Virus record (IMG/VR): IMGVR_UViG_3300032007_001569
From: a virus
Taxonomy: Duplodnaviria; Heunggongvirae; Uroviricota; Caudoviricetes
DNA: 64,000 bases
Reading direction: 5' to 3' (one strand)
Shown here: positions 3,479 through 60,797 of the stretch, one piece after another
Layout of the letters: the number at the start of each line of letters is the position of its first letter
Numbering within the stretch: the stretch's first letter is position 1
Translations under genes and position numbers: made by a program
Notes under the pieces: generated by a model
Seen by the model: only the letters and a program-made list of their open reading frames with translations
What the model was told of the DNA's origin: nothing
Database searches by the model: none

Positions 3479-3754
3479 TTATATCAACGCGGTAATTTTG
3501 AAATCCTTGGCGAAGTCTTCGGGAGAGACAACCTTGTCGTCACTTCCGTCATCGGCTCCATAGAAAACCGCAACCTTTCCGTTGCAGGTGTTCGCCACAC
3601 CGGTTTTGCCGGTCGCTAGTTCAACAACCTCTATGGTGTGGCAACGCGGTTCGTTCATAACCAATTTGGCGTATTCGTTCATGCTGTCTCTCCCCCTATT
3701 GCCGCATCGTCGTTGATCCTGTTTGTCTCTGAGCTTGGCTCTATTATACACCAT
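3479..3754 (-). CDS. hypothetical protein
   Basis: 91-aa ORF directly downstream of promoter P1. Confidence 0.3.
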   Translation of the reverse strand: MVYNRAKLRDKQDQRRCGNRGRDSMNEYAKLVMNEPRCHTIEVVELATGKTGVANTCNGKVAVFYGADDGSDDKVVSPEDFAKDFKITALI

Positions 3755-3771
3755 TTTAGCTTCATTGTCAA
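3743..3771 (-). promoter_or_regulatory. sigma70-type promoter P1 (TTGACA-17-TATAAT)
   Basis: Minus strand TTGACAATGAAGCTAAAATGGTGTATAAT, upstream of ORF 3479-3754. Confidence 0.6.
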
Positions 3772-3789
3772 TATATTATGGCAATTATT

Positions 3790-4293
3790 CTAAATCATTT
3801 CAACGACTTGCCCTGTAATAATTGTTCTGTTGACATCAATAATGCGCTGGTTCCTGCTTCCGCGAAACGGCAGCGATAGACACTTTTGCTTAATATCAAA
3901 AGCTCCGTCAACTATTACGTCGCAGATGGCGGCAAATTCAATTTGCGCATCTGTTTCAAATAGATCGTCATAACTGTAACCGGTGTAAACCCACAGTTTC
4001 TTTTCTGGATGATAGAGCTTAAATCTGCCACCGACATATGTAGTAAACGGGATGTTTGCTTCGGCAAACGGTTCCCCGCCTGATATTGTCAGCCTGACAA
4101 TGTTTGGATCGTCCAAACATCTAAATAGCTTTTCGTCGGTTTCCTTTGTATAAGGCATTCCGCCAAACCAGTTCCATGTCTGCGGATTGTGACAGCCTGG
4201 ACAATGGCGGGCGCAACCCTGTACAAACAGAGTCGCGCCAACGCCAAGGCCATTGTTAATGTCATATGTTTCAATTCCTGCGTATCGCCACAT
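3790..4293 (-). CDS. nrdG: Anaerobic ribonucleotide reductase activating protein (radical SAM)
   Basis: 167 aa with a CARHCPGCHNP (CxxxCxxC) cluster, sitting next to nrdD. Confidence 0.75.
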   Translation of the reverse strand: MWRYAGIETYDINNGLGVGATLFVQGCARHCPGCHNPQTWNWFGGMPYTKETDEKLFRCLDDPNIVRLTISGGEPFAEANIPFTTYVGGRFKLYHPEKKLWVYTGYSYDDLFETDAQIEFAAICDVIVDGAFDIKQKCLSLPFRGSRNQRIIDVNRTIITGQVVEMI

Positions 4294-4371
4294 AGTATTA
4301 CCTCGTATGCTTTACACGCATCTCGACTTCTTGCTGCTTGCCTTCGTTAAAGGCGGTCTTGTAATCTCCTG

Positions 4372-5004
4372 TTAAATCACATTTGTGGACTGTTCCTTAC
4401 CCCGTGAGGTAGTCGTGTCCAGTCTCTGCATTCCGAAAAATACGTCATAATCTTTGATATGAGATCGCCGTGTTTTTAGTCTGAATCTCATTGATTCAAA
4501 ACTCGCGCCATATTCCTTTGCCAAAAACCGCGCACAATCCGCGTAGGAGCAAAAGCTAATCGTGTTGCCATCTTTTATTAAATCAACAGGCTTCATTCGT
4601 AGTGCCCTGGCAATCGCCAGATTGTTGGTTCCCCTTATTGATATGTTTGAATGATCCCGATTCTTCATCTGCTCGCTTCTTGTGACATACCTTAGATTTG
4701 TATATGAGTTGTTGTGCGTGTTTCTATCAATGTGGTCAACTTCATATCCATCCGGTTTGTCTCCAAGCCAACACTCAGCAACGGCAACATGGATCATTAC
4801 TCTTTTTGTGATTGCATTTTTGCTTCTCCCGCCAAGATGGACAAATGTGACATAATACCCATCTTTAGAATGGTGGTAATCGAGTTTGATTTTGCTTTGC
4901 TTTTTTGATTTTACATTTCTGAATATTGTGCCATTACTATTGATCTCATATAGATAATTCAAAGACTTTATCTTCCGAAACTCAAGATTTGAGTTTTCAC
5001 CCAT
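4372..5004 (-). CDS. HNH homing endonuclease
   Basis: GYEVDHIDRNTHNNSYTNLRYVTRSEQ is an HNH motif. The gene is free-standing between nrdG and nrdD, the classic position of phage homing endonucleases. Confidence 0.65.
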   Translation of the reverse strand: MGENSNLEFRKIKSLNYLYEINSNGTIFRNVKSKKQSKIKLDYHHSKDGYYVTFVHLGGRSKNAITKRVMIHVAVAECWLGDKPDGYEVDHIDRNTHNNSYTNLRYVTRSEQMKNRDHSNISIRGTNNLAIARALRMKPVDLIKDGNTISFCSYADCARFLAKEYGASFESMRFRLKTRRSHIKDYDVFFGMQRLDTTTSRGKEQSTNVI

Positions 5005-23857: not shown

Positions 23858-23873
23858 GAGAATATTATAGCAC
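23845..23873 (-). promoter_or_regulatory. sigma70-type promoter P2 (TTGACA-17-TATAAT)
   Basis: Minus strand TTGACAATTAAATTAAAAGGTGCTATAAT. Confidence 0.55.
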
Positions 23874-23898
23874 CTTTTAATTTAATTGTCAATAGGTT

Positions 23899-24261
23899 TT
23901 AGTATTCTTTTTTAAGGATTTTCTGCTCGTCGATGAACTCAATGCCGCATTGCGGACAGTATGCCGCGTTGATTAGATCAAACTGGCCTTCAGGCTCACC
24001 GGCCTTCGTCGCATACAGATGACAACCACACTCGCCGCAACGGATTGTGACATTATCGCCGAACCTGGCGAACACCTTAAAGCCCTTATGCTCAATCAAT
24101 CCCTTTTCGGCCAAATGCGAATACAGTCTTTTAATTTCGCCGGTACTCGTTACCCATCGGTTAAATTTCCCGCAACTCGCACAATAGATTGCCGTGCGAT
24201 TTCTAACGACGCGCAGTTCTAAATGCTCACTGCCGCACAGCCTACACCTTTCATCCAGCAC
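23899..24261 (-). CDS. hypothetical zinc-ribbon protein
   Basis: Four CxxC pairs: CRLCG, CASCG, CGECG, CPQCG. Confidence 0.3.
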   Translation of the reverse strand: MLDERCRLCGSEHLELRVVRNRTAIYCASCGKFNRWVTSTGEIKRLYSHLAEKGLIEHKGFKVFARFGDNVTIRCGECGCHLYATKAGEPEGQFDLINAAYCPQCGIEFIDEQKILKKEY

Positions 24262-31334: not shown

Positions 31335-31375
31335 CTTCGCATTCCCTCCGTTCGTCTCTGCTTTATGTGAGCATT

Positions 31376-31404
31376 ATAACTCGGTCATGCTTTATTGTCA
31401 ATAC
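31376..31404 (-). promoter_or_regulatory. sigma70-type promoter P3 with an UP-like A/T tract; member of the 55-bp conserved promoter module
   Basis: Minus strand AAAAATTTCAAAAAAGTATTGACAATAAAGCATGACCGAGTTATAAT, upstream of the leader ORF and the large methyltransferase. Confidence 0.65.
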
Positions 31405-31418
31405 TTTTTTGAAATTTT

Positions 31419-32522
31419 TTATTCGGTTTTTTCGCCGCCAGCCAGATACTGACCGATGATGTCGGTTAAATTTGCGAAGGTGACACCATTCCCACCGCCA
31501 AAGGACGGGATCAGCTTGCCATCCCACCGCGCGATAAACTCCTGTTGGATAACGTATTCGTTCAACCCTGCGGCCTTGGCTTCCAATTCTGCCTTTTCCG
31601 CTTCGGCCACGGCCAGACGCGCGTCACGCTCTGCCTCCGCCTTTGTTCGCGTCACATACGCGCTGTTCTCAGCATTAATCTTGTCTGTCTCAGCCTGGGC
31701 ATTGGCCTTCTGAATGGCAATGGCATTGGCGTTCTCAGCTTCAATACGCTTGATCTCCGCGTTTCGCTCCGCCTCCTTGATCGCAATGGCATTTGCGTTC
31801 TCCGTGGCAATGCGCTTTGTTTCAGCCTCACGCTCCGCATTCTTGACGGAAACTTCGTACTGCGTTTGCGCGGCGATGGTTTCATTCTGTTGCTGCAAGC
31901 GGTTGTTTTCAAGCTGGGCATTCAACAGGGCGCGTTCTTCCAAGATCGCGGTGTATTCCGGCGAGAAGTCATATGTTACCATATTGACGCGGACAATATT
32001 GATCCCGTGCGGCTCAGTCGCTCCGGCCAGCTTATCACGGATAATCGCCGGGATTTCACTCTTTGAGGTAACGATTTCCTCCGCATTGAACTGCGCGAAG
32101 GTTTCCTTGATGAATTGAAGCGCATTGGAATTGATAAGCGTCTTTGTATAGTCTGTGCCGTAATTACTGTAAACAATATAGGACATTTCGGCATTGAGCT
32201 GGTATTGAATCTCAAATTCAAACACCGGCACGAGCTGCTGATCCTTGGTCTCCGCCGTATCGCTTGTTGTCGCGTTGGCAACACCAGATGCGATGCGCAT
32301 AGTCTGGATGCGGTTGTCCATAACGACGATGCGCTGCCAAGGCAGTTTGAAGTGCATACCGGGCGACAGCGCCGTGTCCTCTACCCTGCCATATGTAGTC
32401 ATGATTCCCGTTGAACCAGCCGGAACGGATGTCATGATCGAGACACCTGGCGGCAAAATGCCAAGAAGCAGCAGCACAACGAGAGCGCCCGCGACGATTG
32501 TCGCTATTTGTTTGCCTTCCAT
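31419..32522 (-). CDS. SPFH/band-7 (prohibitin/flotillin-like) membrane protein with a coiled-coil tail
   Basis: N-terminal TM segment, an SPFH core, and repetitive Ala/Glu-rich heptads (AIAIKEAERNAEIKRIEAENANAIAI...). Confidence 0.7.
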   Translation of the reverse strand: MEGKQIATIVAGALVVLLLLGILPPGVSIMTSVPAGSTGIMTTYGRVEDTALSPGMHFKLPWQRIVVMDNRIQTMRIASGVANATTSDTAETKDQQLVPVFEFEIQYQLNAEMSYIVYSNYGTDYTKTLINSNALQFIKETFAQFNAEEIVTSKSEIPAIIRDKLAGATEPHGINIVRVNMVTYDFSPEYTAILEERALLNAQLENNRLQQQNETIAAQTQYEVSVKNAEREAETKRIATENANAIAIKEAERNAEIKRIEAENANAIAIQKANAQAETDKINAENSAYVTRTKAEAERDARLAVAEAEKAELEAKAAGLNEYVIQQEFIARWDGKLIPSFGGGNGVTFANLTDIIGQYLAGGEKTE

Positions 32523-38094: not shown

Positions 38095-38100
38095 AAATGG

Positions 38101-39144: not shown

Positions 39145-39260
39145 TTTGAAGGAAATCGGAAATTTGAAGCTCTTTCTTTCACTTTGCTCTACCAACTGAG
39201 CTACATCGCCGGTAACGGCGATGGCTGGAGTCGAACCAGCGACACAAGCCTTGGCATAGA

Positions 39261-39282
39261 AGAAGGATGAGCTTCACAGCCG
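39261..39282 (+). repeat. Copy A2 of the conserved motif
   Basis: agaaggatgagcttcacagccg. Confidence 0.6.
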
Positions 39283-39302
39283 ATCACCTTTCAACTGTAC
39301 TT

Positions 39303-39331
39303 ATTATAACACCGTTAATCTATTTTGTCAA
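39303..39331 (-). promoter_or_regulatory. sigma70-type promoter P4, positioned to drive the tRNA array
   Basis: Minus strand TTGACAAAATAGATTAACGGTGTTATAAT with upstream AAATATTTCAAGAAAAATTGTCAAAAGG. The next downstream features are tRNAs at 39288 to 36220. Confidence 0.6.
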
Positions 39332-39363
39332 TACCTTTTGACAATTTTTCTTGAAATATTTTT

Positions 39364-41720: not shown

Positions 41721-41743
41721 AGAAGGATGACGCCTCATAGCCG
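41721..41743 (+). repeat. Copy A3 of the conserved motif
   Basis: agaaggatgacgcctcatagccg. Confidence 0.6.
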
Positions 41744-41761
41744 GATGGGCGATTGATTATC

Positions 41762-42304
41762 TTACGGCCATTCGCCCAGCGGACACGCGGCCTTCTGCGT
41801 GCCGTACAGCGCTCCCGTCTCCTCGGGGAGATCGGTGCAGAAGAACACGCCTTCCATCACGCCGAACAGATTGTGGGCGATATTTTCGTAGAGCGTGCTG
41901 CACTGTCCGTAGATGTCGCCAAGGTCATCATTAAAATACTGAACGACCTTATTCTTGAACACGACATAGGTCAGATCATTTGTGAAAATGCCCCTGATGC
42001 GCTTCACAAACGAGAACGCATCGTTCCCCTTGAACGCGGTCTGGAACACGTCAGCCATAGCGGTGGGCACACCGACAAAACCATTGGCCGGAACCACATT
42101 GACATACAGCGTGACGTTGCCAAATTCCTTCTGGTCTGGAAGGAGCTGGGACAGCGCCTCCGCCTTTGCACCGCTATCGACATACAGCGTCAGCCGATAA
42201 TTTTCATCGTCAAAGACGACATGCACTTCGGGATCGTGACGGAACATCTCTGCCGTTTCTTTTGCGAAAGTGACCCACGGTGGGGCGAGTTTAATCTTTG
42301 CCAT
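41762..42304 (-). CDS. hypothetical protein
   Basis: 180-aa ORF flanked by motif copies A3 and A4. Confidence 0.4.
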   Translation of the reverse strand: MAKIKLAPPWVTFAKETAEMFRHDPEVHVVFDDENYRLTLYVDSGAKAEALSQLLPDQKEFGNVTLYVNVVPANGFVGVPTAMADVFQTAFKGNDAFSFVKRIRGIFTNDLTYVVFKNKVVQYFNDDLGDIYGQCSTLYENIAHNLFGVMEGVFFCTDLPEETGALYGTQKAACPLGEWP

Positions 42305-42384
42305 TTATCTTTTCTCCTTTTCTGTTCGTGTCGTTTGGAAAATGCGGAAATCGGGCGATCAAACAATATCGTCTATTAAAAGGA

Positions 42385-42407
42385 AGAAGGATGACCGCCC
42401 ATAGCCG
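42385..42407 (+). repeat. Copy A4 of the conserved motif
   Basis: agaaggatgaccgcccatagccg. Confidence 0.6.
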
Positions 42408-42475
42408 CAAAGTGACTGTGCTCCCTTCGGAAATCAAAGCGCCAGAACATCAATAATTACCACTTATTTGTTAAT

Positions 42476-42497
42476 AGAAGGATGACGCTTTCAGCCG
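42476..42497 (+). repeat. Copy A5 of the conserved motif
   Basis: agaaggatgacgctttcagccg. It directly abuts the 3' end of tRNA-Lys. Confidence 0.6.
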
Positions 42498-42510
42498 AAG
42501 GCCGACGAGC

Positions 42511-42585
42511 TGGTGGCCTGACCGGGAGTCGAACCCGGCATATGCACATTAAAAGTGTGCTGCCATACCGCTTGGCTACCAGGCC
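42511..42585 (-). tRNA. tRNA-Lys (anticodon TTT), encoded CCA
   Basis: Acceptor GGCCTGG/TCAGGCC, D arm GCCA-AGCGGTA-TGGC, anticodon arm GCACA-CTTTTAA-TGTGC, T arm CCGGG-TTCGACT-CCCGG, and a 3' ACCA. Confidence 0.8.
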
Positions 42586-42666
42586 AGATAGTGTCGGTCT
42601 CTCCCGACTGCCAATCCTCTTTGTTCATTTGAAATGTTGCTTTTGAGGATTCAGCGCACCTTTCAT

Positions 42667-42754
42667 TTGGCGACGGCGGCTGGATTTGAACCAGCGGAGG
42701 CGCGAGCCTCGGCGGTTTTCAAGACCGCTGCAATAAGCCACTCTGCCACGCCGC
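42667..42754 (-). tRNA. tRNA-Ser (anticodon TGA), class II, encoded CCA
   Basis: Acceptor GGCGGCG/CGCCGTC, anticodon arm GCGGT-CTTGAAA-ACCGC, a 16-nt variable arm, T arm GCTGG-TTCAAAT-CCAGC, and a 3' GCCA. Confidence 0.75.
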
Positions 42755-42758
42755 CGCA

Positions 42759-43106
42759 TTATTCCCAGCCTAAAAACTCATACATCCTTTTGAGATCGTC
42801 TGGATCGTCAAGGCGGAATGAATAGCTTTCATTGCCACTATACAATGTTATCACATAGATGCTACCATCTCGTGTGTCAAACTTGAAACTGACATACTTA
42901 AACATACGCCGCCCTTCATGGTTCACATCGGCCATATTCGCCCAGCTATTCATGAACATGATGTTGTCATATATCTTGCTGACTTCCTGAATCGTCATCA
43001 GACAACCTCCATGGTTTATGATCGGGCGTGGATTTGCACCACGCATGTATGTTGCCATACCGTTTATTAGGCTACATGGAAGGACATTACATCTTCGTGC
43101 TCCCAC
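42759..43106 (-). CDS. hypothetical protein
   Basis: 115-aa ORF. Confidence 0.35.
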   Translation of the reverse strand: MGARRCNVLPCSLINGMATYMRGANPRPIINHGGCLMTIQEVSKIYDNIMFMNSWANMADVNHEGRRMFKYVSFKFDTRDGSIYVITLYSGNESYSFRLDDPDDLKRMYEFLGWE

Positions 43107-43182
43107 TTAACTGGTGGGCGCTACTGATTCTCGCTACACACAACCAACGCCTGTCTACCTTATTCCAGCACCGATCAGACTG

Positions 43183-43482
43183 TTACCACAATTCATTCTG
43201 CAGGTCATAGTGCTTCCGATAGGCATTGCCATCTGAAACATCTTCGCTGTGCCTGACACGGCGATTCGACTGCTGCTTCAAAAACCGCTTGCGCTCACTG
43301 CTGCTGTTCTCCTTGACGTGGTTTCCGGTGACAATCCACCTTCCATCCACATACTCTTCCTTCACCCAGCCGACAAACGGCAGATACCGACCGGCCACAA
43401 TTTCCAGCAGACGCCTCCGCGCCTTGCGCTGTACCTTACGGCGATAACCACGATCCCTGTTCCTGGCGATTCTCTCTTCCAT
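43183..43482 (-). CDS. hypothetical basic protein
   Basis: 99 aa, rich in Arg and Lys. Confidence 0.3.
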   Translation of the reverse strand: MEERIARNRDRGYRRKVQRKARRRLLEIVAGRYLPFVGWVKEEYVDGRWIVTGNHVKENSSSERKRFLKQQSNRRVRHSEDVSDGNAYRKHYDLQNELW

Positions 43483-43589
43483 TTATCATCCCTCCTGATA
43501 AATTGGCTGAGGCTGTGAGGGTCGAACTCACATTGCGGGAGTCAAAGTCCCGTGTCCTACCGTTTGAACGAAACCTCATTGTGCCGGAA

Positions 43590-44741: not shown

Positions 44742-44770
44742 ATTATAACTCGGGTTTTCGCTATTGTCAA
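44742..44770 (-). promoter_or_regulatory. sigma70-type promoter P5 (conserved module)
   Basis: Minus strand AAAAATTTCAAAAACCTATTGACAATAGCGAAAACCCGAGTTATAAT. Confidence 0.65.
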
Positions 44771-44789
44771 TAGGTTTTTGAAATTTTTT

Positions 44790-45560
44790 TCAAAGAAAAT
44801 TTTTACCGCTCCCCGCCTCTTCGATCCGGCGTTTTGCAATATCGAAATACTTTGGTTCAAGCTCGAAGCCAACGTACTTCCTGCCGCAATCCATCGCCGC
44901 CACGCAGGTGCTCCCCGACCCCATACAGCTATCCAGCACCACTTCGCCAGGCTCCGTATAGGATTTAATGAGCCATTCCAGAAGCTCAACGGGTTTTTGC
45001 GATGGATGAAGAAATTCCTTGTGTTCAGGCTGGATGTCGATGACTGATTTCGGGAATTTCTCGTCTGAGATGACGGACTGAACCTCGATGAAGCTCCCAT
45101 AGCAATTATTGTTTGTCCGCCCAGCCAGATTGCCGCGCCCATGATTGCGCTGGTGCGGCTCGCACTTCACCATCTGCGGATGAAATGTGGGCAGCTTCTT
45201 ATAGAATACGGCGATGTCCTCGTGGTTTCTTAATGGCATTCGGTTTGCATTCAGAAAACCGGACACGCGCTCGCCTTTCTTCCAGATGAGGTTGTAGCGC
45301 CACATCTTCCGATTGGACAACATCAAATCGGCTGTAAATAGACCTGAACCGAAGAGCACGATTGCGCCGTTGTCCTTTATGACGCGGTTGTAGGAAGCCC
45401 ACAGCGCGTCGAATGGAATGACGGAATCCCACTTGGCGTTCGCGTTGCCCTTATTAAGCACGCCATATGGCAGATCACAGAGAATCATGTCGATGGATTT
45501 ATCCGGCAACTCCTTCATCAATTCCAGACAATCGCCTTGGTTAATGTAGCTCTCCATCAT
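44790..45560 (-). CDS. DNA methyltransferase, beta-class (N6-adenine or N4-cytosine)
   Basis: Motif IV-like DLPYG is followed later by motif I VVLDSCMGSGSTCVAA. The IV-then-I order defines the beta class. Confidence 0.7.
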   Translation of the reverse strand: MMESYINQGDCLELMKELPDKSIDMILCDLPYGVLNKGNANAKWDSVIPFDALWASYNRVIKDNGAIVLFGSGLFTADLMLSNRKMWRYNLIWKKGERVSGFLNANRMPLRNHEDIAVFYKKLPTFHPQMVKCEPHQRNHGRGNLAGRTNNNCYGSFIEVQSVISDEKFPKSVIDIQPEHKEFLHPSQKPVELLEWLIKSYTEPGEVVLDSCMGSGSTCVAAMDCGRKYVGFELEPKYFDIAKRRIEEAGSGKNFL

Positions 45561-47640: not shown

Positions 47641-47707
47641 TGTTTGCGGTAAAATGGAACTGTAGCAAAGGGGCACCAAAAAGTGAGCGGGCAATCGGGC
47701 AAAAAAA

Positions 47708-50006
<2,299 letters not shown>

Positions 50007-50008
50007 AA

Positions 50009-50135
50009 AGGGGCTCCAAAAAGTGAGCGTTGGGGCTCCAAAAGGGGCTTCAAAATGTGAGCGTTGGAGCTCCAAAATGTGAGCGAAAGGGCGCGACCCT
50101 GGGGCTCCAAAATGTGAGCAAAAGGGCTTCGCTGT
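50009..50135 (+). repeat. Array of 4-5 direct copies of the IS terminal motif (ggggctccaaaa[a/t]gtgagcg) inside the IS, just after istB
   Basis: The same about 20-nt motif forms the terminal inverted repeats and probably represents IstA binding sites. Confidence 0.6.
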
Positions 50136-50154
50136 TTTTCCCCTGCCGACGGCC

Positions 50155-50300
50155 TGAAAATTTAATCCACGGTTCCCTTGACATGGGGCCCTCCGTGGGG
50201 CGGTTTTCAGGTCAATGGGCCAACCCCGCGCTTCGCTGGATTGACCTGGCAAACAGCCTAACCGCCCCACGCCCATGTCAAGGGACTTTCGCGGATTAAG
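50155..50300 (+). repeat. Large nested palindrome inside the IS right end (about 38-bp imperfect arms plus inner 13-bp and 9-bp arms)
   Basis: ggcctgaaaatttaatccacggttcccttgacatggg pairs with cccatgtcaagggactttcgcggattaagttttcaggcc. The inner pair is ccgtggggcggtt / aaccgccccacgc. Confidence 0.55.
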
Positions 50301-50644
50301 TTTTCAGGCCTGAGCTCTGTATCCCCACGACTCTACTGCGGTGTTGGCAGGTGCTCACTTTTTGGGAGCCCTTTTGCTACACTTTTACGTTGACAAACAC
50401 ACGCTTGCATGACCTTTAGGTCTTCGTTTGTATATTTCACACCGACCACAAACCGTATGCCGGTCAGCGGTCAACTATTATCTCTTCCCATGCTACTTGC
50501 CCAACGGCTTTCACGCTACAACCAATAATTTTGCGCCATGCTTAACAAGCTCATGACAACCCGGCTTCACCGGGATAGGTGTTACTCCTTCCTGAAAATC
50601 ATCATATTGAAAAATACCTTCTTGTTGGTTTGTTCGTTCATGAG

Positions 50645-50830
50645 TTATGTCTTCGCGTGAACCTCAACACGAACCTTAGCCCACCCGAAATTCAGAAGAT
50701 GCTTTTCAAGCTCTTCCGCATCCTTGTAGGCCGCTTCCTCGCAGAAATAGTCGCCGCACTCCTTTGTCTCTGACGGCTCCGCGTCATACTTATTTTCCTT
50801 CCAGATCATGACCTTCAGATAGTACCTCAT
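50645..50830 (-). CDS. small protein translationally coupled to the DGR reverse transcriptase
   Basis: The RT stop TGA overlaps this ORF's ATG (ATGA) at 50827-50830. The product is 61 aa and acidic. Confidence 0.35.
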   Translation of the reverse strand: MRYYLKVMIWKENKYDAEPSETKECGDYFCEEAAYKDAEELEKHLLNFGWAKVRVEVHAKT

Positions 50831-51834
50831 TCAGTTTCCTCCGATATTTCAAAACGGTTCTTCTTGAGCAATTCATCCACCATGCTATCAAGGCTGGCAA
50901 TCAGGCGCTTACAGTTCCCGTGGCTCAGGTGGTTTTTCATTGAGCTATATATCACATCGAACTCATCCACGCTCATTTCGCCATTCTGAGCTTTTGCAAT
51001 CAGCTTGCGAATCTTTTTCTTCATGCCGCGCTTCTTTGCGCCATTGAGAAGGCGAATGACTTTGCCATCGTCCGTCACGTAGAAATGAAAGCCCAGGAAT
51101 TTGATTCCCTTCCGCAGCGGGACGATCTCTGTTTTCTCATTCAGCGTCAAATCCAGGCTTGCCAATAGCTTTTTAATGTCATCAAGCAGAGCTTTCAGCG
51201 CTTCGCGGCCTTCTGAAATGACATAGAAATCGTCCATGTATCTTCCGTACCTGCTGAACCCTCTTTCGGTTGTTATCATTTCGTCCAAGCGCATCAAATA
51301 CATCAGGGCGAAAACCTGGCTTGCCTGATTGCCCAACGGGAGGCCGATGCCCTCCGTGCTGTCAATTAAAAGATTACAAATCCACCTGATCCTCTCGTCG
51401 TCAAAGTGCTGCTCGACGACGCGCTTCATTTTCTCATGATTGATTGAATAGAAGAACTTCCTTATATCGCATTTCAGAATATAACCGTTTAGTCCGTGCT
51501 CCGCATAGAAACCGGACAGATGATCGGACAGCGTGTTCAGCCCGAAATCCGTTCCCTTGCCCACCTGCCCGGCAAAATTGGTCGAAATGAAGCTGTCTTT
51601 CAGCTTCGGCAAAAGGACATAATCACATAGGCAATGCTGAAGAACTTTGTCGCGGAACGAACCGACCATGATGACGCGACGCTTTGGCTCAGTCACAATC
51701 AGCTCATGGTATGGCGCTACTTTATATGTTCCATCCACGAGTTGCCGCTTCATTAATTGAATATTCTCCAAGGCATAGCGCTTAAATTCCTGCGCTTCCG
51801 CGCTGCGCCTTCTTCCGAGAAGCGACCGCTTCAT
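50827..51834 (-). CDS. Diversity-generating retroelement reverse transcriptase
   Basis: RT motifs are in order: CDIRKFF (motif A), the DGR-specific GIGLPLGNQASQ ([I/L]GxxxSQ replacing the group-II QGxxxSP), RYMDDFYV (YMDD) and KFLGFHF. The adjacent TR/VR pair supports the call. Confidence 0.85.
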   Translation of the reverse strand: MKRSLLGRRRSAEAQEFKRYALENIQLMKRQLVDGTYKVAPYHELIVTEPKRRVIMVGSFRDKVLQHCLCDYVLLPKLKDSFISTNFAGQVGKGTDFGLNTLSDHLSGFYAEHGLNGYILKCDIRKFFYSINHEKMKRVVEQHFDDERIRWICNLLIDSTEGIGLPLGNQASQVFALMYLMRLDEMITTERGFSRYGRYMDDFYVISEGREALKALLDDIKKLLASLDLTLNEKTEIVPLRKGIKFLGFHFYVTDDGKVIRLLNGAKKRGMKKKIRKLIAKAQNGEMSVDEFDVIYSSMKNHLSHGNCKRLIASLDSMVDELLKKNRFEISEETE

Positions 51835-51994
51835 AGACCGATAAAGGTTCCCGAAGTCGGTCAGCTTCTCAAAATCAGATAATGACTTTTGTATTTATCC
51901 CACCCTCTTTCGGCGAGAAAGGCTATACGCTCTTTTGATGTGGCGCTCTCCTTTGAGCTTCAACAGAAACCTAATCGCTCTCACAATCCACCAG

Positions 51995-52075
51995 AACGGG
52001 CGGACACCGTTGCAATAGTCAGAGTCGTTCCAATTCAGGACGCCATTGGAGTTGACGTTGCAGACGTTGCCAGCT
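51995..52075 (-). repeat. DGR template repeat (TR)
   Basis: 81 bp homologous to 52523-52603. It lies 160 nt upstream of the RT start on the RT strand. In the target frame it encodes AAC AAC AAC AAT AAT AAC GAC GAC TAT AAC codons. Confidence 0.85.
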
Positions 52076-52101
52076 ACAGCGTATAGCCCATAACGGTTTT
52101 G

Positions 52102-52467
52102 CTATAGTTTTGATCTTGCAGAAAGCGTCATATACTTTATGTCTGCAACGAGGGAAGACCAGGAATTGCACGTAACCTCGCTTATTAGCTTGGCATGAAG
52201 GCTGTATTCAGCCAGCTTCAAGAACTTGTTGCAGCATGATATGACACTCGTTTGCATATCGAATCGCGCGTCTTTCCGCTTCTGAGTGTCTGTTTTGATA
52301 CTGTTCGCGTCCTCTGAAAGACAATATATGTCGATAGCGCAGCCTTGTAACTTGTCGGAAAGCCTACGGAATCTGACAGGATAATGGCTTTTGCTCGTGG
52401 TGATGTCAAGCACACTTGTCATTAATTCACTGGCCTTTTCTCCGATGATAAATCTCTTCTCTGGCAT
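52102..52467 (-). CDS. Accessory variability determinant (Avd)-like small protein
   Basis: A 121-aa ORF located exactly between the target/VR and the TR, the canonical Avd position. No independent sequence confirmation is possible here. Confidence 0.5.
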   Translation of the reverse strand: MPEKRFIIGEKASELMTSVLDITTSKSHYPVRFRRLSDKLQGCAIDIYCLSEDANSIKTDTQKRKDARFDMQTSVISCCNKFLKLAEYSLHAKLISEVTCNSWSSLVADIKYMTLSARSKL

Positions 52468-52473
52468 TAAGAT

Positions 52474-53100
52474 TTAAGATTCGACAACCTCAAAATTCGA
52501 GATGGAAGAGTTCAAAATGCAAAACGGGCGGACACCGAGGCAACAGCCAGAGCCGCCCCAATCCAGGACGCCATCGGAGTCGACGCGGCAGACGAAGCCA
52601 GCATAATCTTTGTGATCGCTGACGGGCGTAGCCAGCCACCACCACTTGCCATAGGCAGGAAGATACTGACGATAGCGGCGGTAAAGCTCAGTTGTGAGCA
52701 AACTCACATGGTCGCGGCAGCACTTGCCGACGTTGGTTCCATCGTCTGCGGTCAGATTGACATTGTGCATGATGACATTCTGTCGGCCAACCGCGTCGGC
52801 CAAGCTGTCGAAGAAGGGGCCGTTCAGGTAATCGCGCACTTTGCTTGCCTTGTAGTTGTTATCTTTGCCGAACTCCATTTCCTTGACAAAATCCTTTGTA
52901 ATCAGCGCCGTCGTCTCCGCGCTGTGACCGAGTACGATATATTTGACATCGCCAATCTTGACCACTTTGCCACACTCGACATCGCCCAGCGGCACGCTGT
53001 TCTTGTTGATCTCATCAACATACAGCGTGATGGATTTGCCGTCGTCAGACTTTTCTACCTTCACATTGATACCAGTATTGTTGACAACATTGATCTTCAT
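52474..53100 (-). CDS. DGR target protein (208 aa) with a C-terminal C-type-lectin-like variable region
   Basis: The VR maps to residues about 166-193. The C-terminus GKWWWLATP...YAGFVCRVDSDGVLDWGGSGCCLGVRPFC fits the CLec-fold target pattern (W-rich, G[FV]RP). Confidence 0.75.
   Translation of the reverse strand: MKINVVNNTGINVKVEKSDDGKSITLYVDEINKNSVPLGDVECGKVVKIGDVKYIVLGHSAETTALITKDFVKEMEFGKDNNYKASKVRDYLNGPFFDSLADAVGRQNVIMHNVNLTADDGTNVGKCCRDHVSLLTTELYRRYRQYLPAYGKWWWLATPVSDHKDYAGFVCRVDSDGVLDWGGSGCCLGVRPFCILNSSISNFEVVES
52523..52603 (-). repeat. DGR variable repeat (VR) within the 3' end of the target gene
   Basis: It differs from the TR at 15 positions, all of them TR adenines on the coding strand (11 A to G, 2 to C, 2 to T). 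It ends with an invariant GC-rich 15-mer cggtgtccgcccgtt (IMH-like) shared with the TR. Confidence 0.85.
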
Positions 53101-54533: not shown

Positions 54534-54995
54534 TCATCGAGCGCCTCCGCCATACAGCTTAATGACCCTGCCGCCATCGGCCTTATAGCGGTGTACGTCC
54601 AACAGTCTGCACATTGATCGCTTCTCCATGTCTTCATAGAACACATCGAAAATTCCGTCCACAAAATAGGCGGGCTGATTGTCGAAGCAGACCATCGCAA
54701 CGCCGTCTGAATCGGAATAGATGATGGTGGTGTGTTGCTTGGTCATCGCCTGGCCGTACATATAGCCGGACTCCGCGAAGCCTCCGCCCGTGTTCGGGAA
54801 CCATTGCGGGAACACATCGACGGACGTGTCGTCCAGATACGGCGCGCCTTCCTCATGGCACTCAATCCGGTGCTTATTGAACACGCGGACAAGCCATTCA
54901 AGATCGGGGTATTTTGCGTTTGGGTTGATTTCGTGCATGGTTTCCTCCTTACGCGGCTTTGTCGGCCTTGATTTGTTCCTCAATGATGTAATCAA
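54534..54995 (-). CDS. hypothetical protein
   Basis: 153-aa ORF. Confidence 0.35.
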   Translation of the reverse strand: MITSLRNKSRPTKPRKEETMHEINPNAKYPDLEWLVRVFNKHRIECHEEGAPYLDDTSVDVFPQWFPNTGGGFAESGYMYGQAMTKQHTTIIYSDSDGVAMVCFDNQPAYFVDGIFDVFYEDMEKRSMCRLLDVHRYKADGGRVIKLYGGGAR

Positions 54996-55335
54996 TGTCG
55001 CGGATAGCGATATTCCGCGCGGCGTTGAAGTCGGCGTTTTTCTTATAGCCGCAGCGCTGACACTGGAACACAGCCTGAATCTTGCGATTATTCTTATCTA
55101 TATGGTGCGAACTTGGCCGCGTTTTCATGGGCGCTTGACGTTCGCACCGCGCGGATTCAATCTGAATTATCCGCGACTTCTTCCGGCTTCCCGCCGTATT
55201 TCTCCACGAACTTCTCCATTATCAGGCCAGTCGCCAATCGCTTGATGGCCTCCCGGTTTGCCCGGCATTGCTTCTTGCAATAGGGCTGGCGGCGGCACTC
55301 CGAACACTTACCCGTGTCCTGCCATGCTTCCCTGC

Positions 55336-55994: not shown

Positions 55995-56023
55995 TTGACA
56001 ATGTAATTTGACTGTTTTATATT
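55995..56023 (+). promoter_or_regulatory. Plus-strand sigma70-like promoter (TTGACA-17-TATATT), antisense to the gene array
   Basis: ttgacaatgtaatttgactgttttatatt on the plus strand, preceded by gtacctgttgaca, which resembles the tacctgtttgaaat element found at 56408 and 57509. Confidence 0.4.
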
Positions 56024-56055
56024 GGCCGCGCGTTTGACGCGGCCATTTTATTGGG

Positions 56056-56295
56056 TCATGCCGCTGTGTTCTCCAAGGCAAGCATTTCCTCAAACAACGT
56101 CAGCATTTTATCCCGAATGGCGTTCCGCTGGGGCCAACTCAGGTTTTCCGCATGGAACAGGCGGAACTCTCGCTCGTTGATCTCGAAAAAGACATCAAGC
56201 ACCATGCCATTTTCGAGCCTCACGCGCGATTCATACCAAGAGAACAATTCTCCATCAAACCGTTCGACACTCACAACAGTCATCTTCAATCTCAA
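56056..56295 (-). CDS. hypothetical protein
   Basis: 79-aa ORF downstream of promoter P7. It is preferred over the overlapping Ser-rich plus-strand ORF. Confidence 0.35.
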   Translation of the reverse strand: MRLKMTVVSVERFDGELFSWYESRVRLENGMVLDVFFEINEREFRLFHAENLSWPQRNAIRDKMLTLFEEMLALENTAA

Positions 56296-56348
56296 ACACC
56301 TTCCTTCATCTCACAATCGAACGTTTGTTCTTTTTGGGCGGTGAGATC

Positions 56349-56377
56349 ATTATACCTTATTTGGCAGGTCTTGTCAA
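56349..56377 (-). promoter_or_regulatory. sigma70-type promoter P7 (TTGACA-17-TATAAT)
   Basis: Minus strand TTGACAAGACCTGCCAAATAAGGTATAAT. Confidence 0.6.
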
Positions 56378-56459
56378 TACCAATCACTAAAATTATTTCT
56401 CTGTACCTGTTTGAAATTAAATTTATCTCCAATGAAAAGGGCTTTGTGCCCTGTTTCAT

Positions 56460-57449
56460 TTATTGGTGAATGTAGCTGACGATCTTGTTCCTGAACTGTT
56501 GAATATCGTCTACAATGCCGTATTTCTGCGCCGCCGCGCGGAAATCGTCAGCTTTGCCAGAATCCCTCTGCGCGTTCAGAATGGCATTTGCTCTTTCCGC
56601 ACCGTAAGTTTTAACCAGCGTATCATAGAAGCCAAGGTGGTACAGGACTATATAGCTGACATCCTTGCCGAAACCAATATCCTTTGCCGCCGTCTTGATG
56701 CAGTTGTGAAAATAGGCACAGGCAATGGTCGGCTGTTTGTCGTTGATTTTGTCAACCTGCGAAGCCCTGGTGGGCAGCGTGAAATAGCTGTCGTGATAGG
56801 GCGTCATAATCAGATTCCCACGCATGAACGGAATGACCTTCATTTCGTGAACGCGCTGCGCGAGGTTGAACGTCTTTTCGTCCAGTGTGATCGTCCTGAA
56901 ATCTGCCAGCCTGATCGTGCGCGTCTTGGGTGATATATCCTCTTCCTTTACCGCGATGATTTCCGTCGATTTGGAAAAGCCGCTGTAGAAAAGACGGATC
57001 ATTAGCTCGATAAAGTCTGCCCGCTCCGCATCATAGTATCTGCGGACGCCGGAAATTAAATCCTCCATATCCTGCGTGGTGAATACATCGGTTTCATCCG
57101 CCAGGGCCATACTCAGATTATGCGCTGAAAACTGCTTCGCGTTGAACGGATTGTATACCGACGCATGATAAGTCTCATTATACCACTCAATCATATTGCG
57201 ATAGCAATTTGCGACGATGTAAACGGTGGAGAACGGAGCGCGTCTGCCGGATTTGCTGACGATCTTGTTCTTCAGAAAGTACATGATTTCGTCCGCGTTC
57301 ATCTCGATCAACTGCTTGCCGATTTCCTCTTCGTATTCATAGAGTTCTTTCCGGTCAATCATCGTGATAAACTTTTCAGGCGTTTTCATATTTGTCTTTG
57401 AAGCTGTATACTTATCTATCATTTCCCGTGTCGTCATATGCTCTGCCAT
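56460..57449 (-). CDS. hypothetical protein
   Basis: 329-aa ORF downstream of a promoter. Confidence 0.4.
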   Translation of the reverse strand: MAEHMTTREMIDKYTASKTNMKTPEKFITMIDRKELYEYEEEIGKQLIEMNADEIMYFLKNKIVSKSGRRAPFSTVYIVANCYRNMIEWYNETYHASVYNPFNAKQFSAHNLSMALADETDVFTTQDMEDLISGVRRYYDAERADFIELMIRLFYSGFSKSTEIIAVKEEDISPKTRTIRLADFRTITLDEKTFNLAQRVHEMKVIPFMRGNLIMTPYHDSYFTLPTRASQVDKINDKQPTIACAYFHNCIKTAAKDIGFGKDVSYIVLYHLGFYDTLVKTYGAERANAILNAQRDSGKADDFRAAAQKYGIVDDIQQFRNKIVSYIHQ

Positions 57450-57478: not shown

Positions 57479-57507
57479 ATCTTATCACAAAAATCCGATT
57501 ATGTCAA
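57479..57507 (-). promoter_or_regulatory. sigma70-type promoter (TTGACA-17-TAAGAT)
   Basis: Minus strand TTGACATAATCGGATTTTTGTGATAAGAT, upstream of ORF 56460-57449. Confidence 0.5.
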
Positions 57508-57525
57508 TACCTGTTTGAAATATTT

Positions 57526-57813
57526 TTATTCTCTTTTTCCCTGCCGCCGAACGCCGAACGTCCAGCCCGGCAGAATATAGATGAGCGTGCCGCCATGCTT
57601 ATCCTGATAGCCGATATAGGGCTTTTCTTCCGGGTTGCCATGATGGAGCAGGTTATACTGCATGGCCTCCATGAGCGCCGCCGCAATTTCATTCGTCATG
57701 GCCTTTGATTTGGACGTGATTATTTCCTTGCCCTTTTCATCCTTCCTGACGAACGCCAGGAACACGCCCTGCTGATACGTCTTGGGATGGATGTTCTTCC
57801 ATGTAATCCCCAT
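57526..57813 (-). CDS. hypothetical protein
   Basis: 95-aa ORF. Confidence 0.3.
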   Translation of the reverse strand: MGITWKNIHPKTYQQGVFLAFVRKDEKGKEIITSKSKAMTNEIAAALMEAMQYNLLHHGNPEEKPYIGYQDKHGGTLIYILPGWTFGVRRQGKRE

Positions 57814-57822: not shown

Positions 57823-58797
57823 TCACTTCTTCATGGATTCGGCCAGCTCTTCCAGCTCCGCGAAGGCGTTTATATGCGTCTGCGGGTCTGCGTTCGCATT
57901 CTCCATGCCCATAGAATAAGCCAGCCTCAAAAGCTCACGTAGGTCGGCGCTCTCCAGATGGACAACGGGAGAATCCGCATGGGGGGCGGCTGACTTCCCC
58001 TCGATGCAATCCCTGAAAAAGTTTCCGAAATCGTCGTAGTATTTGTGTTGCTTTTCCCGCGTCAAGCCGATGTATGAACGGGTCGTGTTCGCGCTGGAAT
58101 GGTTATAAATCCCCTGCAAAACCTCCATCGAATTGACATCGCCCGCGTGTAGCTCGCGGGAGTATTTGCCGAAGGTCTTCCTGGCGCTGTGGGAGCCGAC
58201 ATTGTACTCAATGCCAAGCTCCTGCGCCGCGCGCTTCAAGGCTTTAAGATAGCCGCTGTAGGACAGGACGCGGCCTTTATAATTTCCCGAAAGCTGGAGG
58301 AACACCGGTGCGGAGAAATCATCCTTCGGGACACAGCCGGTCTTGTCGCAATAGAACCAGATCGCGTTTCTCACTTCCTGATTGATGCGGGGCGCGGCCA
58401 GCTTGCCGGTCTTTTCCTCAGAGATGGAGGCCAGTTCCTCGCGGAAGTTTTCGCGGGCGTCGAAGAAATTCTCCCACTTCAGGGCTAGAATATCGCCAAC
58501 GCGACGCGCCATGTTGCAGCTCAATTCCAGCGCAAGGCGGGGAAGCCACATCTCATGGCTGGTGAAATAATCCACCATGCGGCGCATGTCGTCCATCGAG
58601 AAGGCGTAAACCTCAGACTTGACGCCAGCCTTTTTGTTGCACACCGTCTGCTTGACGGTTCCATCCTTTTTTAGGTGCTGGGGAACGATGCGGATCACGT
58701 TCCCCTCTTCCCTGGTGGTGTACTTCACGGCGGCTTCTGACATGTTCATTCCCTCCTTGCGCTGTTGATGGCTGAAGTATAACTCGGTAATCTTCAT
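57823..58797 (-). CDS. Tyrosine recombinase / phage integrase family protein (second, internal copy)
   Basis: The catalytic region VGSHSARKTFG (HxxR) and LQGIYNHSSANTTRSYIGLT (Tyr nucleophile region) are present, and the gene has its own strong promoter P8. Confidence 0.7.
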   Translation of the reverse strand: MKITELYFSHQQRKEGMNMSEAAVKYTTREEGNVIRIVPQHLKKDGTVKQTVCNKKAGVKSEVYAFSMDDMRRMVDYFTSHEMWLPRLALELSCNMARRVGDILALKWENFFDARENFREELASISEEKTGKLAAPRINQEVRNAIWFYCDKTGCVPKDDFSAPVFLQLSGNYKGRVLSYSGYLKALKRAAQELGIEYNVGSHSARKTFGKYSRELHAGDVNSMEVLQGIYNHSSANTTRSYIGLTREKQHKYYDDFGNFFRDCIEGKSAAPHADSPVVHLESADLRELLRLAYSMGMENANADPQTHINAFAELEELAESMKK

Positions 58798-58804
58798 TTG
58801 TCAA
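58776..58804 (-). promoter_or_regulatory. sigma70-type promoter P8 (conserved module; TTGACA-17-TATACT), upstream of the internal integrase
   Basis: Minus strand AAATTTCAAAAACATGTTGACAAATGAAGATTACCGAGTTATACT. Confidence 0.6.
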
Positions 58805-58828
58805 CATGTTTTTGAAATTTTCCTTCAG

Positions 58829-60715
58829 TTAATTTTTTGAGTCCTTATCAAATGGCGGCTGGTATGTGTTGATAATGGGTTTATGATCCAGTTTGGCATA
58901 ATACGCCAGAACATCGTCATACCACGCGCGGTCAAAGGAGCTATGGCGCATCCGGCGCATGACAACACCGTCATTTTCGCTGACCATTTCCCAAATCAGA
59001 TTATCCGGGATGTCGCCAAGCCAGCCGTCGAAGATCAGATAGTCGTTGCGAAGCCAAATTCTCCGCTGCTGCTTGCCGCGAGACGGCACATAGTCAAGCT
59101 GCACCGCATCGCTGTACTGTGCATAGGTTGTTTTCTTCCAGCTTTTCACCGTGAGACGGATCATTTCTAGCCCACCGAAATCATACATCTTAATGATGGT
59201 GAGACGCTGACCGGGCTGTGGATTCACCCTTGCAAACTGCTCCTGCGTGCTGTTCATCTCCACCGCCAGCTTGTACATGGCGATCTTGAGCCTTTCCATA
59301 TTTTCCGGCAGGGCGCGGATGACGCTTGCGCCAAATCGGATTCCCGGCTTTCCGTTTTCGCCGTAGATTTTCCGCTTCATTGCCTCTTTGTAGATGTCGA
59401 AATTATCCGTATCCCAGGAGGCAATAAGACCATTTGATTCGATGACTTCCACGCTGGTGTCTTCCAGAGTGTCGGCAGCAAATTTATTGTCATTAAGCTG
59501 TTCCTCGGTCATGACCTGCTCGCCCTTGTATTCATTGACGACGCGGGTCTCTTCGCCGACCAGATAGACATAGCGGCAATAATTGTAGCCCTCCGGGTTG
59601 ACGATCAGCTTCATCTCGCCATCGCAGAAGACAGCGACGCACTCATTCTCGAACCATTCCACCGTCTCGCGCTCTTCGGCGGTCATGTTGTCATAGTCGG
59701 TCATGGAGTTGACGCGCCAATCGTCGGTCGCGCTCCCACCCATTCCGGCGACGAAGCTCCAATCATCGAGAAGCTGAGACGTGAAGATGTCATAAAGCCC
59801 CTTTGTGAGATGGACTTCCCGCGTCACGCGGCAAACGCGGCTCTCGTTCGTCCCCTCTTCTTCAATGGAGCGCTCGTATAGGGAAAGAATATTGCACTTG
59901 CAATCCTTCGGGAACACGGCATTCTCGACGAAGTATTCAACATCGCGCGTCACGGCGGCGGCTTCAACTTCGTTGCGCTGCGCCTCTTCAATCTGACGGC
60001 GGCGCTCATACTCCGCGTGTTCGGCCTCGCGCTTGGCGCACATTTCAGCCCATTCGCGCTGCTTCCGCTCTTCCTCTTCACGCTCAAACTCAACCTTGGA
60101 CGCCTGGAAGCGCTGGATCATGTCTGCGATTTCATCGGTCTGCGCCGTCTCGACATAATCATAATGCGCAGAACAATAACCACCGTAGAAATTGTGCCAA
60201 TGATAATCAGCGTAGGGGTCGCTGTCGCCATACTGGAAGCTGTGAGTGTAAGCGGTAATGTAGTCTATGATCGCCTTCAGCTCTTCGCTGTCCTTGGCAA
60301 AGGGCGCGGCCTTGACCTCGCTCCAGAAATCATTGTGGTCATGGACGGTGAAGGACAGACGGCACATCGGGAACCGCTCTTTGATGTGCTTACGGATGAT
60401 CGCGGCGATTTCTTTCGGCTGAAGCTCCTTATCGACGTTGTTCCCGATCCCGTCCGTTCGCGTCATCTTCCAAAGGTCGTAAGGCTCGGCAGGATTAACA
60501 GGCTCAGACGCGACATCCTCCACCATCTGGCCGGAAACCTGGCTGGCGATGTAGCGGGTCTTGTCCGACTGGCGGGCGTACCACATCTTTTGCTTGCCAC
60601 TCCAGCGGAAGCCGCCCAGCTTCATCATGTCGATCACGGACGTTTCCGGCTTGCTCTCAAAATACAGTTCAATCCCATTCTTCGCGGTGTTGTAGACGAC
60701 GCTCACATTAGTCAT
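58829..60715 (-). CDS. hypothetical large protein with a central coiled-coil/acidic region
   Basis: 628 aa with a central ERE-rich segment, downstream of promoter P9. Confidence 0.4.
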   Translation of the reverse strand: MTNVSVVYNTAKNGIELYFESKPETSVIDMMKLGGFRWSGKQKMWYARQSDKTRYIASQVSGQMVEDVASEPVNPAEPYDLWKMTRTDGIGNNVDKELQPKEIAAIIRKHIKERFPMCRLSFTVHDHNDFWSEVKAAPFAKDSEELKAIIDYITAYTHSFQYGDSDPYADYHWHNFYGGYCSAHYDYVETAQTDEIADMIQRFQASKVEFEREEEERKQREWAEMCAKREAEHAEYERRRQIEEAQRNEVEAAAVTRDVEYFVENAVFPKDCKCNILSLYERSIEEEGTNESRVCRVTREVHLTKGLYDIFTSQLLDDWSFVAGMGGSATDDWRVNSMTDYDNMTAEERETVEWFENECVAVFCDGEMKLIVNPEGYNYCRYVYLVGEETRVVNEYKGEQVMTEEQLNDNKFAADTLEDTSVEVIESNGLIASWDTDNFDIYKEAMKRKIYGENGKPGIRFGASVIRALPENMERLKIAMYKLAVEMNSTQEQFARVNPQPGQRLTIIKMYDFGGLEMIRLTVKSWKKTTYAQYSDAVQLDYVPSRGKQQRRIWLRNDYLIFDGWLGDIPDNLIWEMVSENDGVVMRRMRHSSFDRAWYDDVLAYYAKLDHKPIINTYQPPFDKDSKN

Positions 60716-60768
60716 TGTTTTATCCTCCGTTCTTTATTCTGCGGGGTTCCTCCCCTGACTTCGCTTGT

Positions 60769-60797
60769 ATTGTAACTCGGCTATCCGTTATTGTCAA
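60769..60797 (-). promoter_or_regulatory. sigma70-type promoter P9 (conserved module; TTGACA-17-TACAAT)
   Basis: Minus strand AAAAATTTCAAAAACCTATTGACAATAACGGATAGCCGAGTTACAAT. Confidence 0.65.

Follow-up and report, generated by a model that had tools for sequence, protein, structure and literature searches.

Nine promoter-like sites, four of which carry the hexamer CCGAGT beside the -10 element, are described here from a 64,000-nucleotide stretch of viral DNA (Caudoviricetes; IMG/VR virus record IMGVR_UViG_3300032007_001569), which at its full length is referred to as the window. The window has a G+C content of approximately 49%, and nearly every gene in it lies on the minus strand. Its genes include a replication and nucleotide block (DnaB-type helicase, primase, DNA polymerase III alpha, ThyX, a kinase, an anaerobic ribonucleotide reductase and its activase, and a dUTPase), several DNA methyltransferase genes, a PcfJ-like gene and an integrase-family gene. 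The tRNA genes lie within positions 36219-43578 and number 11 by ARAGORN and 13 by Rfam, the extra Rfam predictions being at 38633-38704 and 37980-38059. An earlier note on this DNA had reported nine minus-strand sites combining TTGACA, a 17-bp spacer and a -10 hexamer, and all nine were found; seven of its coordinates were right, whereas the sites it placed at 23845 and 31376 lie at 23864 and 31373. The sites are listed below with the span from the first base of the -35 to the last base of the -10 in brackets, followed by the open reading frames (ORFs), genes or RNAs that each is predicted to drive.

3743..3795, minus strand: P3771 (3771-3743), GGTG directly abutting TATAAT; 67-aa ORF 3682-3479 and genes downstream
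23864..23916, minus strand: P23892 (23892-23864), TG class, GGTGC then TATAAT; small zinc-ribbon-like ORF (start 23836), RNA-ligase gene 23670-22363 and genes downstream
31373..31425, minus strand: P31401 (31401-31373), class B, CCGAGT 31379-31384, -10 TATAAT; 52-aa membrane ORF 31334-31176 and methyltransferase/DUF4942 gene 31170-29155
39303..39355, minus strand: P39331 (39331-39303), TG class, GGTGT then TATAAT; Y-RNA-like RNA, then the tRNA array
44742..44794, minus strand: P44770 (44770-44742), class B, CCGAGT 44748-44753, -10 TATAAT; PcfJ-like gene 44708-43590
56349..56401, minus strand: P56377 (56377-56349), TTGACA-17-TATAAT with neither TG nor CCGAGT; 65-nt leader with an inverted repeat, 75-aa ORF 56283-56056, then 208-aa ORF 55962-55336
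57479..57531, minus strand: P57507 (57507-57479), TG class, TGTGA then TAAGAT; MrpR/SroF-like gene 57449-56460
58776..58828, minus strand: P58804 (58804-58776), class B, -35 58799-58804, CCGAGT 58782-58787, -10 TATACT 58776-58781; by position, integrase-family gene 58749-57823 and the 95-aa ORF after it
60769..60821, minus strand: P60797 (60797-60769), class B, UP-like 60798-60821, -35 60792-60797, CCGAGT 60775-60780, -10 TACAAT 60769-60774; by position, the gene for a 628-aa LPD29-domain protein, 60715-58829

Perfect sites of the form TTGACA-N17-TATAAT occur six times in the window, all on the minus strand, compared to an expectation of 0.02, and TATAAT is therefore present at six of the nine sites rather than at five as had been counted. 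The looser pattern TTGACA-N16-18-TAnnnT occurs 11 times (nine on the minus strand, two on the plus strand) compared to 1.06 expected. Six of the nine sites match the sigma-A consensus hexamers at 12/12 positions, two at 11/12 and one at 10/12. A promoter matrix scan, proposed earlier as a check, was carried out with a position-weight matrix trained on the nine sites themselves; they scored 37-68 bits each while the next best minus-strand site scored 9, which makes them a discrete class by matrix score. All nine lie 6-208 nt past a stop codon and 26-65 nt before either a ribosome-binding site and start codon or an RNA gene. The region from -59 to -36 contains 71-83% A+T across the nine sites (51% for the window), in agreement with the earlier description of sigma70-type promoters with an UP-like tract, and six to seven sites have an A6-T3-C-A5 pattern upstream of the -35. 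Based on the strand-specific excess, the discrete class, the intergenic placement, the A+T-rich upstream sequence and the conservation of the hexamers (see below), the nine sites are, in a computational sense, real promoters for host RNA polymerase with the primary sigma factor (sigma-A), heading leftward units and ordinary in kind. The units that had been named for them, comprising a methyltransferase (P31401), the integrase-family gene (P58804), the tRNA array (P39331) and genes of unknown function, are likewise borne out. Two of the promoters are preceded by terminator-like hairpins, as follows, and the others, which follow immediately on the gene before them, would supplement transcription that reads through from it.

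60987..61007, minus strand: terminator-like hairpin and T9, just past stop codon 61006 and upstream of P60797
56438..56452, minus strand: terminator-like hairpin after the MrpR/SroF-like gene

The upstream part of these promoters is shared well beyond the window. Scans with the 19-mer TTTCAAAAACCTATTGACA, both of which give lower bounds, matched at least 120 unrelated viral contigs and at least 120 genome contigs. Of 116 distinct viral sites, 100 continue with 17 nt and TAnnnT (72 with TATAAT), and 73 of these 100 have TG at -15/-14. The genome contigs belong almost entirely to Oscillospiraceae, Ruminococcus, Lachnospiraceae and other Clostridia, where the genes behind the 19-mer include rplJ, rpsL, rplM, rpmB, acpP, metK, transporter genes, tRNAs and regulators of the Rrf2, GntR, PadR and Fur types. 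On visual inspection, the A/T module has some likeness to the CodY consensus, which is probably of little relevance given the ribosomal-protein promoters. Since the same 19-mer stands at housekeeping promoters and in unrelated viral contigs, the upstream module is, by these comparisons, the host clade's generic strong sigma-A UP element and -35, which the phage promoters mimic. Firmicute sigma-A promoters reportedly combine an UP element with a TG or "-16 region" extended -10. The window promoters share with them TTGACA, the 17-bp spacer, TATAAT, the A-rich tract and, in four to five of nine, TG, but differ in that an invariant CCGAGT replaces the TG region in four. Mapping of transcription start sites in Clostridium phytofermentans (Lachnospiraceae) has likewise described an A-rich UP-like tract, TTGACA and TG-TATAAT (PMC5171806).

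It is the segment from -18 to -13 that divides the promoters of the window. One class has a TG motif (GGTGT, GGTGC or TGTGA, with GGTG abutting the -10 at P3771); TG lies at -15/-14 in P23892, P39331 and P57507, is shifted by one base in P3771, and is absent from P56377 and the four CCGAGT promoters, so that an extended -10 is not a property of the set as a whole. In the other class (P60797, P58804, P44770 and P31401), CCGAGT takes the place of the TG motif and is invariant, as the earlier note had observed for these four sites. The sequence CCGAGTTA occurs in the window at these four promoters and nowhere else, and of 254 generic sites sharing the upstream 19-mer, not one has CCGAGT at this position. 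No inverted partner of CCGAGT was identified near any promoter, with ACTCGG occurring in the window only at 15237, 17896, 52928 and 61757. Restriction-site avoidance was ruled out as a cause of the CCGAGT pattern, as the hexamer occurs 10 times compared to 6.8 expected under a Markov model, and its apparent depletion arises from a mononucleotide expectation.

Relatives of the phage were obtained from a protein database and contig look-ups. Promoter orthologues were compared in seven sets across L271 (96% identical to the window overall), L299 (82% amino acid identity), and L301 and L303 (63-67% amino acid identity). The proportion of positions differing among orthologous promoters was lowest in the -35 (1%) and -10 (3%), intermediate at -18 to -13 (17%) and in the first 25 nt after the -10 (17%), and higher in the UP region (28%) and the spacer from -29 to -19 (45%). 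Every hexamer is preserved in L271, whereas P60797 and P57507 have 4-5 changes in 11-12 nt of their spacers. CCGAGT is unchanged in six of the seven orthologue comparisons, although in the distant ones few or none of the 11 spacer bases beside it are the same: it is kept in the orthologues of P60797 (with an altered spacer) and P58804 in L271 and L303, of P31401 in L301, and of P44770 in L299. Only the P44770 orthologue in L301 departs from this, with the TG-type hexamer GCGTGC in its place. Among the TG-class promoters, TGTGA of P57507 is retained in L271 and L303, and the P39331 orthologues in L299 and L301 stay of the TG type. L303 has an additional promoter with CCGAGC beyond the region matching the window. 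Because CCGAGT stayed unchanged while the adjoining spacer diverged, it is a lineage-specific element under purifying selection, which over evolution can be exchanged for the TG motif. A phage-specific control site is its probable nature, and its strict conservation argues for function and makes a role as a regulator site plausible.

Outside these close relatives, others at 32-43% protein identity have promoters of the same kind, with 61 on the gene strand compared to two on the other, and in most of them a promoter lies 75-100 nt upstream of the orthologue of the 628-aa LPD29 gene. When viral contigs were scanned at the protein level with the PcfJ-like and methyltransferase genes, no relatives emerged, and an exact look-up of the PcfJ-like protein returned the same phage only. 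Viral contigs were also scanned for TTGACA-N11-CCGAGTTATAAT, which gave 13 loci with six distinct sequences. These loci were rejected as relatives, as they have no protein in common with the window and are regarded as chance-level; the genes after them are heterogeneous (small helix-turn-helix proteins, a nucleotidase-like protein), and one site is intragenic. In relatives of lower G+C content, many promoters have the palindrome TAGTAAATGAGTTACTA or variants approximately 5 nt after the -10. Its general form is (T)AGTAAATGAGTTACT(A), with matching changes in both arms (loci L134-L146, L272-L296, L304 and L305), and in L304 the repressor-like gene has a promoter without it. The window does not contain TAGTAAATGAGTTACTA; a related form is present at a promoter cut by the window end (63960-63990) and in its L303 orthologue. 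The palindrome could serve as the operator for a dimer or form a hairpin at the 5' end of the RNA.

The 628-aa LPD29-domain protein (60715-58829) has homologues in viral and metagenomic contigs of 130-170 kb and is 30-34% identical over 97% of its length to proteins of the Bacillus SPbeta-like phages SPR and EZ-2018a. In addition, the gene order helicase, primase, DNA polymerase III alpha, kinase, ribonucleotide reductase and dUTPase is that of SPbeta yorI to yosS. Based on the LPD29 homologue in SPR and EZ-2018a and on the replication gene order, the window is read as part of a large SPbeta-like phage, whose hosts are probably gut or rumen Clostridia. This likeness is a distant similarity: a nucleotide search of a cultured-phage collection with the window gave tRNA matches only, and no cultured phage is similar at the nucleotide level. 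Three ORFs of the window bear on which protein might read CCGAGT.

56460..57449, minus strand: 329-aa ORF with an integrase fold, similar to the master repressors SroF/MrpR of the SPbeta family; candidate trans-acting factor
57823..58749, minus strand: 308-aa ORF of the tyrosine-recombinase family (Pfam Phage_integrase 3e-12; PHROG integrase 3e-28)
61841..62494, minus strand: 217-aa ORF with a weak XRE-type helix-turn-helix (PHROG repressor/regulator families, E 7e-6 to 6e-4)

In a Foldseek search with the 329-aa ORF, SroF, YopR and MrpR occupied the top five ranks, SroF/MrpR being closest in fold. The ORF has no Pfam or PHROG match and only six homologues, among which no Arg, His or Tyr past residue 157 is invariant, a pattern that fits loss of recombinase chemistry. 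By fold, the phage is thus predicted to encode a non-catalytic, putative DNA-binding repressor of the integrase fold. A sequence search of the PDB gave nothing useful for this ORF or for the 308-aa ORF, so that the fold comparison alone was informative. The 308-aa ORF has a weak BLASTP match to YopP (E 0.02) and the 329-aa ORF has none. With P57507 before it and the hairpin at 56438-56452 after it, the MrpR/SroF-like gene is read as a monocistronic unit. The XRE-like ORF has no Pfam match at E <=0.01, is conserved in L303 and remains the second candidate reader. By analogy with the boxes of SPbeta and phi3T, a repressor of the MrpR/SroF kind would be expected to have a repeated element in some of the phage's promoters, and a single, asymmetric site suits a reader acting as a monomer better than a dimer of the XRE type. 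The integrase-fold ORF is the best, if doubtful, candidate for the protein that reads CCGAGT.

Under the proposed mechanism, two A-tracts at approximately -54 to -40 would act as the UP element for the C-terminal domains of the alpha subunits of RNA polymerase, while sigma region 4 would read TTGACA and sigma region 2 TATAAT across the optimal 17-bp spacer. In four to five promoters, a TG immediately before the -10 would provide the extended -10 contact typical of Firmicutes. CCGAGT would most likely confer specificity on an operator that lets a phage protein switch the CCGAGT subset of promoters, namely those of the LPD29 protein, the integrase-family gene, the PcfJ-like gene and the methyltransferase. 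The repressor might read CCGAGT jointly with the upstream A-tract module, and silencing of the CCGAGT units would leave the TG-class promoters to host polymerase. The overall explanation, in which host-type promoters combine a generic upstream module with CCGAGT as a likely operator element, is considered fairly probable. Its more specific version, in which the modules double as operators read by the monomeric integrase-fold repressor 56460-57449 as a Clostridia-phage counterpart of the SPBRE/MrpR (SroF) switch, is put forward tentatively and is, on balance, unlikely.

The closest known system is the SPBRE/Phi3TRE-MrpR/SroF switch of SPbeta and phi3T; the phage is predicted to share its protein by fold, and membership at the DNA level is no more than putative. 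MrpR binds the repeated element SPBRE in 10 SPbeta promoter regions (PMC10516654), and SroF, acting as a monomer, recognises an asymmetric A-tract box of 24-26 bp (bioRxiv 10.1101/2025.11.27.690993). SPBRE, derived here as roughly ACAAATACAAATAATATGTATA, varies in position in SPbeta, being upstream of the -35 (aimR, yonT), over the -10 (yosX, yonP, yorZ) or just downstream (yonX, yopV). In SPR (L267, 8850-8980), the sigma-A-like promoter of the orthologue of the 628-aa gene is flanked by the SPBRE-like boxes CAAATACAAAAAATATGTAT and CAAATGCAAAAAATATGTAA. Shared with these phages are the LPD29 homologue in SPR, the synteny of the replication module, the position of the integrase-fold ORF two genes after the integrase-family gene (like yopP-yopQ-yopR), and a short element repeated in a scattered subset of phage sigma-A promoters. 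The element here, however, is 6 bp long and lies inside the spacer, compared to A/T-rich boxes of 15-26 bp there, and the probable host is an anaerobe of the Clostridia rather than Bacillus. Strong early promoter families are also found in lytic phages such as T5, T7 (A1-A3) and SPO1. Like those, the window has multiple near-consensus promoters for host polymerase with A/T-rich upstream sequence on the coding strand; unlike those, its promoters are spread over at least 57 kb instead of being clustered at a genome end, and its phage carries lysogeny-type genes.

Several observations weigh against the integrase-fold protein as reader of an operator. Neither that ORF nor the 308-aa ORF is detectably similar to YopR by BLASTP, and no SPBRE or phi3T box is present in the window at up to 3 mismatches. 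CCGAGT, at 6 bp, is much shorter than the A/T-rich SroF/MrpR boxes; a long repeated block does exist (family D1, below), but its long A/T part, which is the sole block of fitting length and composition for a SroF-type box, is generic, and the lineage-specific part is 6 bp. An operator consisting of CCGAGT only would also leave the TG-class promoters before the replication genes unregulated. Moreover, the swap of CCGAGT to GCGTGC in L301, together with G-16 and G-14 being common to CCGAGT and TG-type promoters, points to a possible variant contact with RNA polymerase. It is therefore possible, although on balance unlikely, that CCGAGT is an alternative polymerase contact, a variant of the "-16 / extended -10", which tunes strength or kinetics without any regulator. 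The hexamer sits exactly where the TG motif sits; C-17 is additionally common to CCGAGT and GCGTGC, G-16 and G-14 are common with CGGTGT, and the L301 orthologue indicates that the two types are interchangeable in evolution. Six distinct unrelated viral promoters (the sequences from the scan above) also have TTGACA-N11-CCGAGT-TATAAT; these are, however, single copies on contigs without a protein common to the window and are compatible with chance. Such a contact would also have to accommodate an A at -15, which removes the T of the TG contact, and the absence of CCGAGT from the clade's 254 generic promoters. No base of the hexamer varies in any copy or in six of the seven orthologue comparisons, whereas the TG class varies freely around TG (GGTGT, GGTGC, AGTGC, TGTGA).

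A different reader of the repeated element, either the XRE-like ORF 61841-62494 or a host regulator, is improbable. The XRE-like ORF has its weak matches to PHROG repressor families and is present in L303, which belongs to the CCGAGT lineage, but not at the corresponding position in L304, which lacks CCGAGT. XRE-type helix-turn-helix proteins normally bind inverted repeats as dimers, whereas CCGAGT is single and without a nearby inverted partner, and the lack of a Pfam match counts further against this ORF. Also quite unlikely is a recent origin of the four modules from one cassette by duplication or gene conversion, which would make them alike by descent and not by function. Among the direct repeats in the window, the promoter block forms the highest-ranking family (D1, seven copies of 58 nt), and the 27-mer AAAAATTTCAAAAACCTATTGACAATA is exact at 44770 and 60797, with 2 mismatches at 31401 and more than 3 at 58804. 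The copies, however, are only 64-79% identical, and the 11 spacer bases from -29 to -19 and everything past the -10 are unrelated among the four, so that the earlier description of near-identical modules of about 55 bp is overstated. The idea of duplicated regulatory cassettes is not supported, given the same unrelated sequence and the generic nature of the 19-mer, which many Clostridia have at housekeeping promoters and which recurs in unrelated phages. The copies are also old, since relatives at 63-96% identity have each promoter at the same place. A weaker form of the shared-module idea survives as a signal of concerted evolution, as the upstream 24 nt are more similar within phage genomes (0.54) than between them (0.46; 0/500 permutations) and the sequence before the -35 follows a "house style" particular to each relative. 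The house style may stem from polymerase preferences of the host, from gene conversion or from a DNA-binding protein that co-evolves with it.

In addition to the nine promoters, the window contains two further promoter-like sites and an RNA of note.

63960..64000, minus strand: likely tenth promoter, TGTGC-TAAGAT then palindrome CCGTAAACGAGGTACGG, the -35 lying past base 64000
55995..56023, plus strand: TTGACA-17-TATATT, the sole strong plus-strand site
39163..39275, minus strand: match to YrlA (RF02553) right after P39331

The cut tenth promoter sits upstream of ORF 63942-63733, and its full orthologue is found at L303:4297. The plus-strand site is convergent with P56377 and antisense to the 75-aa ORF 56283-56056; its hexamers are conserved in L271 with a changed spacer, and a G+C-rich hairpin with a T-run (56023-56045) abuts it. 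The stretch 55995-56045 may make an antisense RNA. The plus-strand ORFs 56051-56344 and 56152-56469 were rejected as products of this promoter, as they look non-coding. The YrlA match covers the full model, including the permuted tRNA-like module, at E 3e-7 and 43.4 bits, which is below the gathering score of 69. The motif CGGCT-N8-TCATCCTTC recurs five times among the tRNA genes (42497, 42407, 41743, 39282 and 39142), and its copies may mark further Y-like RNAs. Just upstream of the Y-RNA-like RNA lies a 734-aa gene (41568-39364), conserved and without a Pfam match, whose product could be the protein partner of a Y-like RNA. ARAGORN also reports a tRNA with an odd anticodon loop at 38873-38946.

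Other parts of the window have features of separate interest. Many palindromic restriction-type sites do not occur in the whole window, among them GGWCC, CGGCCG, AAGCTT, CCGCGG, GCCGGC, GATATC, CAGCTG, GGCGCC and CGATCG, for which 39-54 occurrences are expected. A reverse-transcriptase-like gene at 51753-50827 has RVT_1 orthologues in L301 and L304; near it lies a pair of 83-nt repeats (51992-52074 and 52520-52602, 82% identity), and the region 47666-50130 has raised G+C, 34-nt repeats and long overlapping ORFs on both strands. The whole of 47666-52602 may be a diversity-generating retroelement or similar. Approximately 178 nt (54988-55165) have no counterpart in L271 and cover a 59-aa ORF resembling a C-terminal fragment of a TnpB/Cas12f-like protein; the matching place in L303 holds a 240-aa version with PF07282.

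If these readings are correct, they have several implications for large temperate phages and their hosts. The window would supply strong and compact sigma-A promoters, ready for use in gut Clostridia, with a core design validated by its recurrence at housekeeping genes across hundreds of species. A six-base, strongly selected element at a defined promoter position would represent either a new type of operator or a new polymerase contact. In addition, the SPbeta type of large temperate phage would extend from Bacillus to uncultured Clostridia of the gut and rumen, and its unusual integrase-fold repressor would probably extend likewise to the phages of Clostridia.

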